DNA of 64,000 bases from assembly GCA_963749345.1 (NCBI GenBank), contig CAVVMO010000004.1, forward strand, positions 135,187 through 199,186, read 5' to 3'. Both the position numbers and the translations under genes were made by a program. The number at the start of each line of letters is the position of its first letter. Positions within the stretch are counted from its first letter, which is position 1. The DNA is from an uncultured Bacteroidales bacterium. GTDB taxonomy: Bacteria; Bacteroidota; Bacteroidia; Bacteroidales; JAADJA01. Positions 5,779-14,421 of this stretch are shown here, one piece after another. Below the pieces are notes generated by a model that searched no databases, was not told the origin of the DNA, and worked only from the letters and a program-made list of their open reading frames with translations.

Positions 5779-5929
5779 AATTAAAGTACGCAATAATTGC
5801 ACTTCGCCTTGATTAAATAAATTTTAGTGAATAGCCGTACAAATAATCAGTCAAGTGCCTCGTTATAGCTAAATGAAAATTATGTGTATTTTTGATCGGG
5901 TTATCCTGCTTTGAATTTTGAACGACAAG

Positions 5930-8532
5930 ATGAAAATATTTTTTTACACCCTTTTTCTTATTTTTTTCCACTCTCTTGCTTTCGCAACTCATGAAAGAGC
6001 AGGTGAAATTATTTATGAACACATTGATGGACTCAAATACAAGGCTACCATCATTACCTATACTTATTCACCAAGTCCGGCCGACCGTCCGCAATTAACA
6101 CTTATGTGGGGCGATGCAACAGCATCCGTGCTTGACCGGACGGAAAAAATACCCATTACTGAAATTATTCAGCGCAACGTTTATGTGGGTGAACATACTT
6201 ATGCCGCCCCCGGAATTTTTAAATTGGCTATCGAAGATCCAAACCGGAATTACGGTATTGTTAATATTCCAAATTCTGTCAATATTCCATTTTATATTGA
6301 AACGGAGTTAATTATCAATCCTTTTTTAGGTAACAACAGCTCTGTAGTATTGCTGAATCCACCTTTGGATTTCGGATGCATTAACCGCGTTTACATTCAT
6401 AACCCCGGCGCCTATGATCCTGATGGAGACAGCCTTTCATACAAACTTACCATTTGCAAAGGTGCAGGTGGACAACCTGTTCCGGGTTATATTTTTCCGC
6501 ACCTGGTGGATCAGGGAAATCCGGGGAGCTTTAGTATTAATGCCTATAATGGTGATTTGATCTGGGATAGCCCAACATTACAGGGAGAATATAATGTTGC
6601 TTTCATCATCGAAGAGTGGAGGTTCGGGCAAAGAATTGGATATGTAACAAGGGATTTACAAATCCAGGTTGTCGCCTGTTCCAATAATCCACCTGAAATC
6701 ATTACCATTTCAGATACCTGTATCAATGCGGGTGATTCATTGTTTTTCCAGGTTACAGCCACAGACCCTGATGGTGACCAGGTTAAGTTATCAGCAACCG
6801 GAAGTCCTTTTCTACAAGCAGAATCTCCCGCTGTAATGGACCCAAATCCTGCCATTGGAAATGTGAATGCAATTGCTCAGTTTCATTGGAAAACTGTTTG
6901 TTCACATGTATTAAAGAATCCCCATCCTGTTTATTTTAAAGCCATCGACAATGACCCAATAGTAAGCTTAAGCAGCTATAAAACTTTATATATTAAAGTT
7001 GTTGGACCCGCTCCGCAAAATCCACTTGCCACTTCGTTGGGTAACTCGATAATTCTTAGTTGGGAAAAAAATGGTTGTGATAATGTTAAAGGGTATTTTA
7101 TTTACCGTCGGAAATCCTATTACGGATTCTTCCCCGGCCATTGCGAGGTTGGAGTTCCGGAATATACCGGTTATACAAAAATTTCCGAAATTGACGGAGC
7201 AGATAATCTTTCCTATACTGACAGTGAAAATGGTAATGGGCTGATACCCGGAATTCAGTATTGTTATATGATCACAGCCATTTTTTCGGATGGTGGAGAA
7301 AGTTATGCCACTGAAGAAGTTTGTGCTTTGTTGAAAAGGGATCTGCCAATAATAACAAATGTTAGTATAATTTCAACAGATGGTAACGATGGTTCTGGTT
7401 ATATCGCCTGGGCAAAGCCTACAGAGCTGGACACTATTCAAATTCCAGGACCCTATGAATACCAGTTGTACCGTAAAGACAATTCACAAGGGTCCACATT
7501 TAACCAGGTTGCTGTATTCAACTCACTCAACGATACCACTTACAATGATGGTTCAATTAATACCAGAGATTTGCAGTTCAGATACCGTGTTGACCTGCTG
7601 ACAAAAAACCCCGATAATCCTTTTTACATCGGATCGACTGTGGCTGCTCCTTCCATTTTTATTTCGATTGAACCTACAGATAAGGCTTTGCAATTAAACT
7701 GGAACAACGATGTTCCATGGATCAATGATACTTTTGAGGTTTACAGAAAAATCCCTTCGGTATCTTCCGATTTTGAATTGATAGGAACTTCTCTGACTCC
7801 TGATTATTTAGACACAGGGTTGGAGAATGGTAAAGAATATTGTTACAAAGTTAAATCTATTGGCAGGTATTCTGCTTTGGGACTAGTTGATCCGATTATT
7901 AATTTTTCTCAGGAAAATTGTGGCTTTCCAATTGATAAAGTCCCTCCATGCCCACCGGCATTAAAGGTTGAAATTAATTGTGAAGAATTGGTTAATTATT
8001 TGACATGGTAGCCTTACCCGGATACTTGTCAGGCAGAGATTCAGTTTATTTTAAAGTTTATTATGCACCATCCGAAGATTCTGATTATTCCTTGTTTCTA
8101 CCACCGGACCGGATGTTTTTGAATATACATTTTCAACTACCCCTCCTTCAGTGGTAGGGTGTTTTAGCGTTACAGCCCTTGATACTATGAATAACGAAAG
8201 TCACTTTCAGTAATGTTGTATGTATTGATATTGATGCTTGTGGCGCTATTTGGTTTCCAAATGTTCTGACACCCAATAGTGATGACTTTAATGATTTTTT
8301 TCAGGCCGATTCGATAAATTCTGTAAAACAATTCCGATTGACAATATTTAACCGCTGGGGGACAGTTGTCTACGAAACGGAAGATCCTTTTTTTAAATGG
8401 GATGGAAAAGACCAGAGCAACAACAGGGATTGCAGTCCGGGAGTCTATTTTTATGAGGGGCTGGTATCCGTTTATACTTTAAGAGGACCCATTGATAAAA
8501 AAGTACAGGGCTCTGTAACATTGTTACGATAA
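5930..8532 (+). pseudogene. T9SS type-B (gliding-motility-associated CHU_C) CTD protein with FN3-like domains, interrupted near 8009-8210
   Basis: Starts with a signal peptide followed by ATHERAGEI. The C-terminal FPNVLTPNSDDFNDFF...IFNRWGTVVYE...GVYFY...GSVTLLR lies beyond an in-frame TAG (8009-8011) and about three frameshifts. These may be sequencing errors rather than true pseudogenisation. A TATTTTTG box is at 5887-5894. Confidence 0.8.
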
Positions 8533-8535
8533 AAA

Positions 8536-8558
8536 AAGGAGGGTGAAATTCCCTCCTT
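8536..8558. terminator. Intrinsic terminator hairpin between convergent genes
   Basis: AAGGAGGG-tgaaatt-CCCTCCTT with a 5' A-tract (U-tract on the minus strand). Confidence 0.75.
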
Positions 8559-8580
8559 CTTACAATATATTTCCTAAATT

Positions 8581-9585
8581 CTATTTATCAAATTTCATTA
8601 TCAGGCCGATCAGGTCAACAACCCGGTTTGAATAGCCCCATTCATTATCATACCAGTTCAATGTTTTAATGACACGCTTGCCTAAAACTCTTGTAAACTC
8701 GGGATCATAAATAGATGAATACGAGTTCCCCACGATATCAGATGAAACTAATTTTTCTTCAGAATACAATAAAACATGTTTCATCCGCTCCGTTTTTGAA
8801 GCCATTCTGACGGCTGCATTTACTTCATCCACTGTAACATTTCTTTCCACTTCAACAACCAAATCTACAATGGAACCATCAGGAACCGGAACACGACAAG
8901 CCATTCCATCCAATTTCCCCTTAAGCTCCGGCATTACTTTACCTACGGCTTTTGCAGCACCGGTGGTTGTAAGGATTATGTTTTCAGCAGCGGCACGCCC
9001 ACGCCGCCAGTCTTTATGAGGCACATCCGCCAAACGCTGATCATTGGTATAAGCATGGGTAGTGGTCATTAATCCTTCGATGATCCCAAAATTATCATGA
9101 AGGACCTTGGCCATAGGGGCAAGGCAGTTAGTGGTACAACTTGCATTTGAGATAATTTTATGTTCCGGTTTCAGACCGTCTTCATTTACCCCAATTACAA
9201 CAGTGAAATCAATTTCATCTTTTGATGGAACTGTCAAAATAACCCTTTTTGCTCCTGCGTCAAGGTGGAGCTGCAGCGATTCACGCGAGCGGAAAATACC
9301 AGTTGCTTCAACAACAATATCTATCCCAAGTTCCTTCCAGGGTAAGGTTTTGGGATCCTTGATGGCAAGCATCTTCACAGTTTCGTTTGTAGTAATCAGG
9401 TCATCACCTTTAATTTTAATATCCTCACCAAAACCTTTCATAATGCTATCGTACTTGAGCAGATATGCCAGTACATCATTATCGAACAAATCATTTATTG
9501 CAACTACATCAATATCCTGTCTGCTATTTAAAATGCGGAATACAGACCTCCCAATTCTTCCAAATCCATTAATTGCTACTCTCAT
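8581..9585 (-). CDS. gap: Type I glyceraldehyde-3-phosphate dehydrogenase (catalytic residues intact)
   Basis: INGFGRIGR, INDL, SNASCTTNCLAP, THAYTNDQ, RVPVPDGS, WYDNEWGYS. Confidence 0.97.
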   Translation of the reverse strand: MRVAINGFGRIGRSVFRILNSRQDIDVVAINDLFDNDVLAYLLKYDSIMKGFGEDIKIKGDDLITTNETVKMLAIKDPKTLPWKELGIDIVVEATGIFRSRESLQLHLDAGAKRVILTVPSKDEIDFTVVIGVNEDGLKPEHKIISNASCTTNCLAPMAKVLHDNFGIIEGLMTTTHAYTNDQRLADVPHKDWRRGRAAAENIILTTTGAAKAVGKVMPELKGKLDGMACRVPVPDGSIVDLVVEVERNVTVDEVNAAVRMASKTERMKHVLLYSEEKLVSSDIVGNSYSSIYDPEFTRVLGKRVIKTLNWYDNEWGYSNRVVDLIGLIMKFDK

Positions 9586-10595
9586 TTTGAACCTCCTTTC
9601 CTGTCTGCTTTATCATAAGCTAATATTAATTCTTTAATTCTGGCTGCCATGGCAAATGCGCCATGATACCAGATAAGGTTTTTAACCATTCTGCCGGGTG
9701 AAAGCATGGTTGCTTTCTTATCAAATACAAGGGAATGTGGATTATCGATCACATCAGTCGATACAATTGGGTCATCAACTACCTGAATAATGTGGGGTAG
9801 CGATTTAGCGGCTTTTTCCATTACCTTATTAATGTCTTCAACTTTGACTTTGGTTTTAAGGCCAGTATTCAAATCGAGCAATGATCCGTTTGGAATCGGC
9901 ACATTAATTGCCGAACCCTCAACTTTTCCTATTAGTTCAGGCATAATGTTTTCAATCCATCTGGGCACGAGGGTGTCGAATGGTATGATGTTTTCAGCAG
10001 CTGAACGGCTTCTGCGGAAGTCTGTTCCTGCCTTGTCTCTTAAGGGTTGGTCTGATGTATAAGAATGCACTGTCGTAAACATAGCATAATCGATACCGAA
10101 ATTTTCGTCCAGAATTTTCAGCATTAAAGACGCTGCATTGGTTGTTGCTGAGCCCGCTGAAATCAATCTGTCAGAAGATTTAATAGTGTGATCATTCACA
10201 CCCTGAACCACAACCCGGTCGATCATATCGGTAGGTAAGGAAGTTAAAACAATTCTTTTGGCTCCGGCTTCGAGATGTTTTTGCATATCATTTTTGGAAC
10301 GGAATTGTGCTGTTCCATCAACAACAAAATCCACATCAAACATATCCCATGGAATTTTACCCGGCTCCCCGCCACCAATAAACCTCGCTTTACCATTGTT
10401 CGATACAAGGAAATTTCCTTCCATTTTAACTTTTGCCTTGCCTTTCGTTTCGGCTCCTACTAAATAACTTAAAATTTCAGGCTTTCCAAGGTCTGAAATC
10501 ACTACAACCTCTATCCGGTCGTCCTCCATGCACATCCTGTAGATATGCCTTGGTATTTCGCCGAATCCTTTTAATCCTAATCTGATTCTGTTCAT
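9582..10595 (-). CDS. GAPDH-like paralog lacking the catalytic Cys (candidate pseudoenzyme)
   Basis: Colinear with GAPDH along its full length (GLKGFGEIPR, HLEAGAKRIVLT, SAGSATTNA, VHSYTSDQ, RRSRSAAENIIP, PIVSTDVI). ATGA overlap with gap. Confidence 0.9.
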   Translation of the reverse strand: MNRIRLGLKGFGEIPRHIYRMCMEDDRIEVVVISDLGKPEILSYLVGAETKGKAKVKMEGNFLVSNNGKARFIGGGEPGKIPWDMFDVDFVVDGTAQFRSKNDMQKHLEAGAKRIVLTSLPTDMIDRVVVQGVNDHTIKSSDRLISAGSATTNAASLMLKILDENFGIDYAMFTTVHSYTSDQPLRDKAGTDFRRSRSAAENIIPFDTLVPRWIENIMPELIGKVEGSAINVPIPNGSLLDLNTGLKTKVKVEDINKVMEKAAKSLPHIIQVVDDPIVSTDVIDNPHSLVFDKKATMLSPGRMVKNLIWYHGAFAMAARIKELILAYDKADRKGGSK

Positions 10596-10704
10596 ATAAC
10601 TTTTCTTAAAATTAATTTTTTGTTTTTACTAAATATAGCAAAGTCATTTTCTCTTCCCAAAAGCAATTGCTTGAAATTAACGTTTGGTAAATTAAAAAAG
10701 CGTG

Positions 10705-10712
10705 CAAAGGTA
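10705..10712 (-). promoter_or_regulatory. -7 box for the gap-like/gap operon
   Basis: TACCTTTG on the minus strand, about 110 nt upstream of the paralog start. Confidence 0.55.
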
Positions 10713-10745
10713 AAAAATATCTGAAAATGGTATGTTAAAGAATTA

Positions 10746-12914
10746 TTATAGGTGATTACCGGTTTTAAAATTCTCCAGGCCCGTATCCAAAAATTTAATG
10801 AAAGCATCAATGTCCAGATCATAAGCTCTGGGTTTGGCTAGTAAATCGCCGTCATGATCCAATAATATGTAATAAGGTTGAGCATTTATATTAAAGTTAT
10901 AAATCTGCAAATCAGCATATATCTTACCTATTGATTTTTTTAGTTTGCCATCGGCAGAGGATAAAACCCATTCCGATTCGGGGAGTGTAGTTTTGTCATC
11001 CACATAAAGACTGATTACAACATATTCTTCTTTCAATCTCCTCAATACACCCGGATCAGACCAAACATTGGCTTCCATTTCACGGCAATTCACGCAGCCG
11101 TGGCCGGTAAAATCGACATAAATAGGTTTGCCTAATTTCTTTGCACAAGCAAGTCCCTGTTCATAATCATAGTATCCTTCAAGTCCATGAGGTAAATGAA
11201 GAAATTCATGAAATTTAGGTGTTTCGCAAATGGATGAACCTTCTTTTATTCCCATTTGCGCTGAACTATTTTGCTGAATGATTTTGTTTAAATCAAAATC
11301 ATGTGTCGTCATCGGGGGTAAATATCCTGATAAGGCTTTCAAGGGTGCTCCAAACATACCTGGTAACAGGTAAATCACAAAAGTAAAGGTGATGATGACG
11401 AATGTAAGCCTGGGAACACTTATAAATTTTACCTCGCTGTCGTGAGAAAATTTTATCTTGCCAAGAAGGTAAAACCCCATGAGAGTGAAAATAATAATCC
11501 AGAAGGCAAGATAAACCTCCCTGTCGAGTATTCCCCAATGATAGGTTTGATCAGCCACACTTAAAAACTTCAATCCCAATGCAAGCTCAATAAATCCAAG
11601 TATAACTTTTACGCTGTTTAACCATCCACCCGACTTTGGAAGTTTGTTCATCCAGGATGGGAAAAATGCAAAAAGTGTAAAAGGTAATGCAAAGGCCACT
11701 GAGAAACCCAACATCCCAACAATTGGTTCAATCCATGCACCGGTAGCTGCCTTTACCAAAATAGCTCCAACCAAAGGACCCGTGCATGAAAATGAAACCA
11801 ATACAAGGGTAAATGCCATGAAAAATGCTCCTGTAAACCCACCTTTATCAGCCTTCGAATCCGATTTATTGATTAGCCAGCTGGGTAAAGTTATTTCGAA
11901 CATGCCAAAAAAGGATGCCGCGAAAATCACAAATATCAGGAAGAAAAGCACATTGGGAAGCCAATGCGTGCTTAACCAGTTAGCAAAATTTACCCCAAGT
12001 GTCACCGCGATTAAGGTTCCGACTACGGTATAAATTAAAATGATAGAAATGCCGAAAACAATTGCCTGTATTTTTGCTTTTGCTTTCTGTTCCTTCATAA
12101 AAAAGCTGACTGTCATAGGAATCATCGGAAAAACACAAGGAGTTAGTATGGCTGCCAAACCCGCTAATATTGAAAAGATAAACAATTCCCAGAGCGATTT
12201 ATTGGAAATGTTATCCACATCGGCTCTTTTCAATACCGATTTGTCTTTAAGCATTTCATATGTTTTCTTATACTCTCCAGGTTTCCGGATCTCCTCCTGA
12301 TCAGTACCGATAGATATTGTTGTAACTTCGACTAAAGGAATTTTTTTTGAAGTATCCTGAGTTTTTACTACAACTTCTTTTTCACTTCCATTAAAGGTAA
12401 ATTGAAATTTGTATTCATCATTCGGGGGTAAGCATTTAGAGTCATCGCAGCACATGAAATAGACATATCCTGAAACAGTCAGCGGATCTTTGGTTACAAC
12501 CTTTATCTTTCGGGTAAATTCGGCTTCATGCTCAAAATATTTGATAACTGCATTATTAAACATTGGGTCTTTTTCTTCGTGCCCTTTTGGTTCAATAAAT
12601 GTGACAATGTAATCAATATCGTTTTCCTTTTCGTAGGAAGCTTCTTCGGTAATTTTAGCATCAGATCCTAAGAATTCAATTCCTTTAATATCATAAAAAT
12701 AAAATGAGGTTTTAACCGGCATTCCATCTCCCTCAGGAACAAATTGCGAATACAAATGCCATTTTTTTTCAATGGTAGCCTTAAATACAAATTCAAATTC
12801 ATCATTTCCCAAATCTGACTTGCTGAAACTCCATTTCACCGGGTCTAATATTTGGGATTGTACAATACAGGCAAAAAATAAAAGAATGCCTGCTGATATA
12901 ACTAACCTCTTCAT
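10746..12914 (-). CDS. dsbD: Protein-disulfide reductase DsbD family (N-domain, CcdA transmembrane domain, thioredoxin domain)
   Basis: CCDDSKC, LTPCVFPMIP, FSCTGP, LPKSGGWL, DFTGHGCVNCREME. Confidence 0.92.
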   Translation of the reverse strand: MKRLVISAGILLFFACIVQSQILDPVKWSFSKSDLGNDEFEFVFKATIEKKWHLYSQFVPEGDGMPVKTSFYFYDIKGIEFLGSDAKITEEASYEKENDIDYIVTFIEPKGHEEKDPMFNNAVIKYFEHEAEFTRKIKVVTKDPLTVSGYVYFMCCDDSKCLPPNDEYKFQFTFNGSEKEVVVKTQDTSKKIPLVEVTTISIGTDQEEIRKPGEYKKTYEMLKDKSVLKRADVDNISNKSLWELFIFSILAGLAAILTPCVFPMIPMTVSFFMKEQKAKAKIQAIVFGISIILIYTVVGTLIAVTLGVNFANWLSTHWLPNVLFFLIFVIFAASFFGMFEITLPSWLINKSDSKADKGGFTGAFFMAFTLVLVSFSCTGPLVGAILVKAATGAWIEPIVGMLGFSVAFALPFTLFAFFPSWMNKLPKSGGWLNSVKVILGFIELALGLKFLSVADQTYHWGILDREVYLAFWIIIFTLMGFYLLGKIKFSHDSEVKFISVPRLTFVIITFTFVIYLLPGMFGAPLKALSGYLPPMTTHDFDLNKIIQQNSSAQMGIKEGSSICETPKFHEFLHLPHGLEGYYDYEQGLACAKKLGKPIYVDFTGHGCVNCREMEANVWSDPGVLRRLKEEYVVISLYVDDKTTLPESEWVLSSADGKLKKSIGKIYADLQIYNFNINAQPYYILLDHDGDLLAKPRAYDLDIDAFIKFLDTGLENFKTGNHL

Positions 12915-13089: not shown

Positions 13090-14421
13090 TCATATATTAC
13101 ATTGTATCCTTAGGATCCTTTTCGTTTCCGGAGTAACTTTAAATCTGTTGTCAATTCTGTGTCCTATGATCCAGACAACCTGATCCCCGGAAGTCAGTAA
13201 CCAGATTTTTTCTTTTTCAGGAATGGAAAGCTTAATATCAATAAAGAAATCACTGATGAGTTTTTTATTTTTCATTCCCAGCGGATAGAAAGAATCTCCT
13301 TTTTGCCATTTCCTTATCAATAGAGGATATATTAGTCTGTCTTTGTCGAGAAAAGCTTGATTCGTATTGCTGGTAAATTTAATATCAGATTTTTTTAGAA
13401 TTAAATTAAATTCCATCTTAATCGGGAATATGATTTCCGTCGTGTCTTTCTGAATTTCGTAATATTTTTCATTTGGCTCAAGACCTTTAATTTTTTCGAT
13501 GATTAGATAGTCACGGTCTTTAAATAGCCGGTGTGAATTTGAAAGAAACATTTTACCGGATTGTTTACTTAGAGAAGCCAAAATGCTTTTCACATCAGAA
13601 TAGTTGAACCCATAAGGCGACAAAAATTCATACAAATAAGTATCGACAAATTTAAGGGCATTTAATAATTGAATAGAAATTTTAATTCTGTCGTTTTCTT
13701 TTGCAATTAACTGATTAGCGACAGAGTCAATTTGTTGAAAATAAATCGTCTCAGCCTGCCGCAATCGTTCAATGTTATCAGTAAAAATTTCAGCGTACTC
13801 CTGGTTGATCTCTTTTATAACAGGAAGTAGTTGATGTCGAATTTTATTTCGGGTATAATCAGCACGAAGGTTTGAACTGTCCTCTCTGAAACGGATTTTG
13901 TTTTTTTTTGCAAATTTTTCAATCTCATTTCGGCTTGTAAAGAGCATTGGATGAATAAGTCGTCCCTGCCGGGGCAGAATTCCGTGTAAACCGGAAATGC
14001 CGGTACCTCTCAACAAGTTAATCAAAAAAGTCTCGATTTGATCGTCCTTGTGATGTGCCGTGGCATAAAAACGATACCCATATTGATCCGTTAAATTTTC
14101 AAGCCAGTTTATTCTCAGTTGGCGGGCCGCCATTTGAATTGAAATCTTATGCTGCTCTGCATACTTTTTCGTATCAAAATTCTCAAGGTGGAATTTAACT
14201 TTATTCTTTTTTGAAAGCTTTTCTACAAACAGTGCATCACTATCAGACTCCTTTCCTCTTAACTGGAAATTGCAATGGGCGATTGCGTAGGTAAACCCAC
14301 ACCTATCAAATAGCCAAGTCATTACCAGGGAATCTATTCCACCGCTTACGGCCAATAAAATAGGGTCATCCGGGTTGAATAGTTCATTTTGCCTGATAAA
14401 GCTTTCAAATTGTTGAACCAT
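13090..14421 (-). CDS. tilS: tRNA(Ile)-lysidine synthetase
   Basis: AVSGGIDS, HCNFQLRG, ATAHHKDDQIET, RNKIRH, TilS C-terminal domain. Confidence 0.96.
   Translation of the reverse strand: MVQQFESFIRQNELFNPDDPILLAVSGGIDSLVMTWLFDRCGFTYAIAHCNFQLRGKESDSDALFVEKLSKKNKVKFHLENFDTKKYAEQHKISIQMAARQLRINWLENLTDQYGYRFYATAHHKDDQIETFLINLLRGTGISGLHGILPRQGRLIHPMLFTSRNEIEKFAKKNKIRFREDSSNLRADYTRNKIRHQLLPVIKEINQEYAEIFTDNIERLRQAETIYFQQIDSVANQLIAKENDRIKISIQLLNALKFVDTYLYEFLSPYGFNYSDVKSILASLSKQSGKMFLSNSHRLFKDRDYLIIEKIKGLEPNEKYYEIQKDTTEIIFPIKMEFNLILKKSDIKFTSNTNQAFLDKDRLIYPLLIRKWQKGDSFYPLGMKNKKLISDFFIDIKLSIPEKEKIWLLTSGDQVVWIIGHRIDNRFKVTPETKRILRIQCNI

Follow-up and report, generated by a model that had tools for sequence, protein, structure and literature searches.

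A glyceraldehyde-3-phosphate dehydrogenase (GAPDH) that is devoid of its catalytic cysteine, and whose gene overlaps that of an intact GAPDH, raises the question of what role such a protein could fulfil. The two genes are found in a stretch of 64,000 nucleotides (nt) from an uncultured Bacteroidales bacterium (assembly GCA_963749345.1, contig CAVVMO010000004.1), which is the whole stretch of DNA that was analysed and is referred to below as the window. An earlier note on this DNA had proposed for the Cys-less copy (here gene B) a conserved, non-catalytic role as partner of the adjacent gap gene (here gene A), and a co-evolution of the two. The GAPDH enzyme is a textbook homotetramer, whose cooperativity and half-of-the-sites reactivity have long been argued about and for which engineered hybrids have been used. 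The results described below support this proposal, and the contrary outcomes that were looked for did not appear. In our assessment, B and A form, with a probability of about 0.6, an obligate hetero-oligomeric GAPDH in which B is a non-catalytic pseudoenzyme subunit. The parts of the locus that are central to this question are as follows.

8581..9585, minus strand: gene A, a 334-amino acid (aa) open reading frame (ORF) for an intact type I GAPDH
9582..10595, minus strand: gene B, a 337-aa ORF with the GAPDH fold and Ala150 at the catalytic Cys position
10146..10148, minus strand: the GCA codon for Ala150 of B, i.e., the catalytic Cys position, as read in the sequence
9582..9585, minus strand: the ATGA overlap of the B stop and the A start, as read in the sequence

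Both proteins carry the Pfam domains Gp_dh_N and Gp_dh_C (E-values for B of 1.6e-14 and 8.5e-44, respectively), and the two-domain fold of GAPDH is thus present in B, whose identity with A is 36%. With the B protein, the equivalog model of type I GAPDH, TIGR01534, gives a score under its cut-off (258.3 bits versus 367.2), and the Epd models TIGR01532 and NF010058 give scores far under theirs (222 bits versus 530–539); B also lacks the Cys. In comparison to the canonical GAPDH sequence, B contains GFGEIPR for GFGRIGR, SAGSATTNA for SNASCTTNC, FDTLVPRW for TTTGAAKA, AINVP for ACRVP, and WYHGAFAM for WYDNEWGY, and it keeps ISDL and HSYTSDQ...FRRSRSAAENIIP. All of the motif changes that the earlier note had listed for the paralog are therefore present, including the Ala codon GCA at 10148–10146.

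The distribution of these changes was examined in two sets of loci. The Bacteroidales set consists of the best 80 of 314 genomes with a relative in a scan of one genome per species; all 80 are uncultured metagenome-assembled genomes (MAGs), nearly all of them labelled Bacteroidales, Bacteroidetes or Bacteroidota, with two labelled Chlorobiota and one Clostridia. The metagenome set consists of the best 80 of 547 relatives that were retrieved with an alignment of seven distant Cys-less proteins, and these loci are 44–75% identical to P0128, a non-Bacteroidales Cys-less representative. None of the 120 closest homologs of B (65–99% identity) has a Cys at the catalytic position, which answers the question of whether close orthologs keep it. 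These homologs share GFGE[IV]PR, SAGSATTNA, HSYTSDQ, RRSRSAAENIIP, NVP and WYHxAxAMA, and their inorganic phosphate (Pi) loop drifts. At the nucleophile position, 63 of the 73 Bacteroidales B copies have Ala and 10 have Ser, and the 72 metagenome copies have Ser (47), Ala (20), Thr (four) or a gap (one), with Ala and Ser swapping even between close relatives. No Cys that might serve as an alternative nucleophile is conserved at any position across the B-type proteins.

Several other replacements accompany the loss of the nucleophile. In all B-types, where Cys150 has become Ala, Ser or Thr, Arg231 is replaced by Asn (99%), Thr206 by Asn, Gly209 by Pro or Trp, and Glu315 by Ala or Gly, and Ala295 and Ser198 are shared by them. 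Changes at the sites of NAD contact are limited to the Bacteroidales B copies (Arg10 to Glu in 73/73, Gly12 to Pro in 43/73 and Asp313 to His in 73/73, with Asn314 variable), whereas the metagenome B-types retain the NAD signature GFGRIGR and WYDNGWG; Glu13, His311 and Trp213 are likewise invariant in the Bacteroidales branch only. The residues that B keeps include His177, Ser149, Thr151, Thr180, the Arg-Arg of the S-loop and an Asp or Glu at position 32. As the nucleophile and Arg231 have been lost throughout the clade and the NAD sites are changed in Bacteroidales, the function of B throughout the clade requires neither of the former, and in the Bacteroidales branch NAD is probably dispensable too. 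Of the roles that the earlier note had considered for the paralog, that of a non-catalytic partner is supported, whereas that of an NAD(H) sensor is disfavoured for the Bacteroidales copy, in which the NAD-site residues are replaced.

The A protein exceeds the TIGR01534 cut-off (441.4 bits versus 367.2) and has SNASCTTNC (with Cys150), His177, Arg231 and WYDNEWGY, i.e., the full set of catalytic and cofactor residues. At none of the positions with at least 80% conservation among 63 ordinary GAPDHs does A deviate, and the A-type proteins as a group also keep all of these residues. The A-types are distinguished by markers of their own, of which the most specific is Met49 (YD[ST][VI]M; YDSIMKGF in A). 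This residue is fixed in A-types of both sets (73/73 and 70/70) and is found in only 3% of the ordinary GAPDHs; the suggestion that the atypical YDSIMKGF of the active copy would fit a co-evolving pair is thereby borne out. Other fixed A-type markers are Val119 and, in the S-loop, Arg184, Ala186, Val188 and Trp193.

The association of the two genes in Bacteroidales is very strict. In 76 of the 80 loci, an ortholog of A (73–99% identity) begins at the last codon of B, and the remaining four loci end at contig edges, with two of them showing the N-terminus of A and two having 36 nt or less left. The order, with the Cys-less gene preceding the Cys-bearing gene on the same strand, is the same in all 78 judgeable loci, and an overlap of 4 nt is present in 74 of 77 pairs (window included). 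Within the order of the window, orthologs of B (E ≤ 1e-90) were detected in 29 of 301 genomes (15 of 208 genera), and orthologs of A (at least 75% identity) in exactly the same 29 genomes, all other gap matches being at most 61% identical. The adjacent gap pairs that the earlier note had wished to see in other genomes are thus found wherever this could be judged, and the two genes co-occur without exception in the 301 genomes. No ortholog of B was found at E ≤ 1e-90 in 400 other sampled Bacteroidota genomes, of which only seven were from the same order; the pair is rare in this phylum, and this sample says nothing on its place of origin. Clustering of the flanking genes of 161 loci revealed no third partner gene conserved beside the pair.

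Beyond Bacteroidales, the pair has a far greater age and a far wider distribution. Representatives at 50% identity were searched exhaustively, which gave 8085 matches, and 28 of the 147 best ones shorter than 600 aa are without the Cys, which is replaced in them by Ser, Ala, Thr, Asn, Gly, Val or Pro. The sources of these Cys-less representatives include 'bacterium' and Planctomycetota MAGs. Three longer proteins, P0122, P0141 and P0251 (2089, 1455 and 1862 aa, respectively), contain one to four GAPDH-like stretches and may be fusions or multi-domain forms. In the metagenome set, both GAPDH genes are held by 71 of the 80 loci, always on the same strand. The Cys-less gene is first and the SNASCTTNC-bearing gene second in 69 of these 71, the other two being artefacts of ORF start calling. 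Seven of the nine single-gene loci show the N-terminus of A before the contig ends and two end with B, so that the pair is present in 78/78 judgeable loci. The junctions between the genes (n = 70) are of −4 nt in 32 loci, −1 in 18, +1 in 13, 0 in three and +3 or +4 in three, with one mis-called start. When the two sets are considered together, 156 independent loci share the absence of the Cys and the tandem arrangement.

Phylogenetic trees were constructed from 113 sequences using the LG+G4 model (tree 1) and from 117 sequences using LG+C20+F+G4 with posterior mean site frequencies (tree 2, for which 10 of the 73 Bacteroidales pairs, one in three of the full-length metagenome pairs and one in two of the ordinary GAPDHs were taken). 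Both were quick searches, in which support was assessed only by the Shimodaira–Hasegawa-like approximate likelihood ratio test (SH-aLRT). The Cys-less copies formed a clade of their own in both trees, in favour of the proposal of the earlier note, with SH-aLRT support of 99 in tree 1 and 96 in tree 2 (49 sequences, including the Cys-bearing P0136). A clade of the A-type proteins, consisting of 31 partners together with P0129 and P0161, had a support of 99. The B-type and A-type clades joined each other (support of 94 and 96), apart from the other gap genes of the window genome. The patristic distances of the partners are correlated (r = 0.93 for 31 pairs), with the rate of B being roughly double that of A (mean path 1.52 versus 0.73). 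If the root is assumed to lie among the ordinary GAPDHs, this branching would indicate one old duplication followed by co-inheritance. Two proteins depart from the general pattern: P0197 is Cys-less yet branches among the ordinary GAPDHs and may represent an independent loss of the Cys, and P0136, within the Cys-less clade, keeps the Cys (SAASCTAHA) but has lost Arg231 and may represent an intermediate state.

The Cys-less copy is also under purifying selection, which was a further check suggested in the earlier note. For the 21 of 2628 locus pairs in which the synonymous divergence (dS) lay between 0.05 and 1.5 in both genes, the median ratio of non-synonymous to synonymous divergence (dN/dS, Nei–Gojobori method, NG86) was 0.074 for B and 0.044 for A. 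The corresponding values for the window and the locus L005 were 0.037 and 0.011.

The remaining features of the locus, which bear upon the joint expression of the two genes, are given below.

10596..10745, minus strand: a 150-nt spacer 5' of B with promoter-like boxes, as read in the sequence
9592..9598, minus strand: Shine-Dalgarno-like AAAGGAGG, located inside the last codons of B, 6 nt 5' of the ATG of A
8531..8558, minus strand: a hairpin (AAGGAGGG, loop aatttca, CCCTCCTT) followed by a T-run, read directly, right after the A stop

The ATGA overlap of the paralog and the canonical gap, which the earlier note had described, is present at 9582–9585 (minus strand), and due to this overlap, the hairpin 3' of A and the spacer with boxes 5' of B, the locus looks like a two-gene operon. 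The hairpin, which has a GC-rich stem of 8 bp, probably serves as the intrinsic terminator for the bicistron of B and A, judging from its form and position; it was seen by reading the sequence and is missing from the output of a consensus terminator scan. The boxes of the spacer were called promoter-like by comparison with TAnnTTTG, which we take to be the −7 consensus of Bacteroidetes. One exact match (TACCTTTG, 10712–10705) is present, and a second sequence (TATATTTA, 10636–10629) matches at 7/8 positions; the single −7 box of the earlier note is thereby only partly confirmed. In regard to the Shine-Dalgarno-like site, its AAGGAG core is present in all 13 Bacteroidales loci inspected, and GGAGG in 11 of them. 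This site codes for Lys-Gly-Gly of B, in which Gly334 is invariant. The sequence AAGGAGG occurs nine times in the window against 7.7 expected, and because this is near the chance frequency, the site counts only via its conservation. According to passages in three papers, ribosomes of Bacteroidia do not recognise Shine-Dalgarno sequences (PMC7797042, PMC9976891, PMC13000453). The AAGGAG site could be explained by a constraint on coding, by a signal for coupling or as a relic from the lineage where the pair came from.

Structure models were used to examine how the two proteins might fit together. The AlphaFold2 model of B alone has a mean predicted local distance difference test (pLDDT) score of 85.7, with residues 180–198 of the S-loop below 50, and it matches solved GAPDHs with Foldseek template modelling (TM) scores of 0.86–0.88. 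The A+B heterodimer was modelled with scores of 0.78, 0.78 and 0.75 (best control 0.00), a mark that was likewise attained for 58 of 80 solved complexes and for 2 of 110 mismatched pairs; these runs share at least 96% of their contacts and have a partner pLDDT of at least 91. Although the modelling check proposed in the earlier note is in this respect favourable, GAPDH homotetramers have been abundantly solved, and the result therefore shows a likeness to them, and neither that A and B bind nor that the hetero form is preferred.

The predicted A+B interface consists of the C-terminal sheet and the end of the S-loop, and in these models B is most constrained at this interface. Of its residues there, 23/44 are at least 95% conserved in the Bacteroidales set versus 72/293 elsewhere (p = 2.8e-4), and 23/44 versus 54/293 in the metagenome set (p = 4e-6). 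Four positions of the predicted interface differ between the A-types and B-types and are fixed in both sets.

A297 / B295, predicted interface: Phe or Tyr in A-types, Ala in B-types (99%)
A299 / B297, predicted interface: Lys or Arg in A-types, Met or Leu in B-types
198, predicted interface: Ala in A-types, Ser in B-types
171, predicted interface: Gly in A-types, Ala in B-types

The occurrence of large versus small residues at equivalent positions is what a candidate hetero-specific interface would be expected to look like.

In the arrangement that we favour, B and A would be two subunits of one obligate hetero-oligomer, most probably a tetramer with the architecture of ordinary GAPDH, and would be made from one bicistronic, translationally coupled message. 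The chemistry would be performed by A. B, the proposed pseudoenzyme subunit, retains the fold, S-loop and principal subunit interface of GAPDH but, being without the Cys, can form no thioacyl intermediate; the Arg that binds the substrate phosphate has been lost as well, and in the Bacteroidales branch several NAD-contact residues are additionally replaced. Such a combination would fit a partner of structural or allosteric nature, by which the number of active sites per tetramer and their properties are set. A more specific proposal, which we advance tentatively and to which we give somewhat less than an even chance, is that the pair represents an old, multi-lineage class of bacterial GAPDH in which two A-type chains (catalytic, Met49) and two B-type chains (dead, Cys-less) are obligatorily combined in one heterotetramer, where the dead subunits either hard-wire the 'half-of-the-sites' behaviour or act as allosteric nucleotide-binding subunits, and where the Bacteroidales B has also given up NAD binding.

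Several considerations weigh against a hetero-oligomer. The sequences show that the catalytic residues have been lost, that both genes are conserved, that they strictly co-occur side by side and that they fall into the clades described. The binding of A to B, their stoichiometry and the effect of B upon the kinetics or stability of A are matters that we infer, including the contact itself, and the favourable A+B model may be a memory of solved GAPDH tetramers that would probably be given by any two GAPDH paralogs. The trees are unrooted, and to speak of the A-type and B-type as sister clades presupposes a root among the ordinary GAPDHs. Additionally, the window genome has a separate ordinary gap gene of 336 aa (SNSSCTTNN, YDSVHRRF; L002:1024-2034) and a 491-aa long-form GAPDH with an N-terminal extension (L004:586-2061), and an ordinary gap and a long form of about 490 aa were present in 6/6 pair-bearing Bacteroidales genomes checked; the pair is therefore an extra GAPDH system and not the sole one. 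The conservation of the interface equally fits a homo-oligomer of B, and this brings in the chief alternative, that B is a stand-alone homo-oligomer with a new function (a binder or sensor of triose-phosphate or nucleotide, or a Cys-independent enzyme) that is tied to A by a shared pathway. The retention of His177, Ser149/Thr151, Thr180 and the S-loop arginines, together with the full NAD signature of the B-types outside Bacteroidales, could point to a ligand-binding or catalytic role of its own for B, and the Ser that many B copies have at the Cys position could in principle act as a weak nucleophile. The pocket of the Bacteroidales B, with its invariant Glu13, His311 and Trp213, also looks remodelled and not decayed. 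However, these new-pocket features are limited to Bacteroidales, whereas the part of B that is conserved throughout the clade consists of the interface and the S-loop. Mere linkage by pathway would also not lead one to expect that the A-type is never found without the B-type in 301 genomes, nor that A has fixed deviations in its S-loop, and the 4-nt overlap is kept in very distant lineages. A stand-alone B is for these reasons an unlikely explanation, albeit one that deserves to be taken seriously.

The same co-occurrence and coupling would also be seen if B, in the manner of a chaperone, assisted A only transiently in its assembly or stabilisation and were not a subunit of the mature enzyme, and the fixed unusual residues of A might make it need such help. 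However, the overlapping codons suggest synthesis in near-equimolar amounts, and translational coupling of this kind is typical of stoichiometric subunits; B has also kept the whole GAPDH interface, and no chaperone-like feature was seen in it. This explanation appears improbable to us, clearly more so than a stand-alone B. The loss of catalytic residues and the score of B under the type I GAPDH cut-off are, on their face, what might be shown by a duplicate in decay, on its way to becoming a pseudogene, or by an artefact of assembly or annotation. Such an origin can practically be discounted, as the ORF is intact in all loci examined, dN/dS is 0.07, the matches (314 in genomes and 547 in metagenomes) extend over hundreds of species, invariant residues specific to the family are present, and contigs from RNA libraries cover parts of B.

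These contigs, from four metatranscriptome runs of three studies, cover parts of both genes, but they reveal no level, strand or single transcript and could be due to carry-over of DNA; none of them bridges the B-A junction with 31 nt on each side. DNA nearly identical to 8400–10800 (54–69% of sampled words) was present in 16 runs from freshwater sediment, sediment, wetland and freshwater metagenomes, and these runs, together with the four RNA runs that hold a small part, span 11 studies; the organism seems to be widespread in such habitats, and one of the runs may be the sample from which the window derives. On the plus strand at 5918–8011, and convergent with the pair, is a gene whose large product (about 700 aa or more) is probably secreted; a homolog occupies the corresponding position in 43 of 81 Bacteroidales loci. 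Upstream, on the minus strand, are 10746–12914, which by eye encodes a DsbD-type thiol:disulfide interchange membrane protein (722 aa; beside the pair in 21/81 loci), and 13090–14421, which by eye encodes TilS (443 aa; 10/81 loci).

Among the closest known systems is the chloroplast GapA/GapB enzyme (A2B2), where, as with B and A, two paralogous type I GAPDH chains are involved, which in that case form one heterotetramer. One of the chloroplast chains carries a regulatory role, with regulation taking place via the C-terminal extension of GapB or via CP12, and both chains keep Cys149, are catalytic and are encoded by unlinked nuclear genes. Unlike these, B is without the Cys and Arg231, has no extension, and its gene overlaps that of A in one operon. 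Entries 2pkq and 7q53, which are presumably photosynthetic GAPDHs of the GapA/GapB type, were among the Protein Data Bank (PDB) sequence matches, as was 1nq5, which we take to be the C149S mutant of the Geobacillus stearothermophilus GAPDH. The C149A mutant of the latter enzyme (1npt, a change of Cys149 to Ala by its title) has the same substitution of the nucleophile as B. Both mutants reportedly still fold, tetramerise and bind NAD, and loss of the Cys is thus compatible with a stable GAPDH subunit. However, they are laboratory-made, with other sites intact, whereas B represents a naturally occurring lineage in which additional sites have changed in a coordinated manner. The PDB sequence search, where the best matches are ordinary GAPDHs, brought out no conspicuous natural relative devoid of the Cys.

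The same concept is illustrated by the AdoMetDC/prozyme pair of trypanosomatids, in which, as described in PMC6221367, the active enzyme forms a heterodimer with a dead paralog that is required for its activity or modulates it. This pair is of another fold and family and is eukaryotic, and activation is shown there but hypothesised for B and A. Epd (GapB) of Escherichia coli is, like B, a divergent bacterial paralog of type I GAPDH, but it keeps the catalytic Cys and is an enzyme, according to parts of PMC12041015. The same parts of this 2025 review of aldehyde dehydrogenase superfamilies name ALDH16 as a pseudoenzyme and none in the GAPDH family. In the full-text literature, with subscription journals and supplements outside the scope of the search, no Cys-less bacterial GAPDH paralog and no heteromeric bacterial GAPDH were found. 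Within the literature thus searched, a bacterial mixed GAPDH with dead subunits is most likely undescribed.

The B-type proteins are currently labelled in databases as 'type I glyceraldehyde-3-phosphate dehydrogenase', 'glyceraldehyde 3-phosphate dehydrogenase' or 'hypothetical protein', and an atlas look-up gave GAPDH-named clusters only. As GAPDH labels are thus attached to Cys-less proteins, metabolic reconstructions count a GAPDH that is unable to work as one. The two classes can be told apart by simple markers, namely the absence of the Cys, Asn for Arg231 and Ala295 in the B-type, and Met49 and Phe or Tyr at 297 in the A-type. If the favoured interpretation is correct, the pair would constitute a new quaternary form of GAPDH and a bacterial pseudoenzyme partnership in central metabolism, present in hundreds of uncultured species. 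In the more specific form of a heterotetramer with two dead subunits, it would also contain the first natural pseudoenzyme subunit of one of the most intensively studied enzymes and would provide a natural system for the debate on subunit cooperativity in GAPDH.

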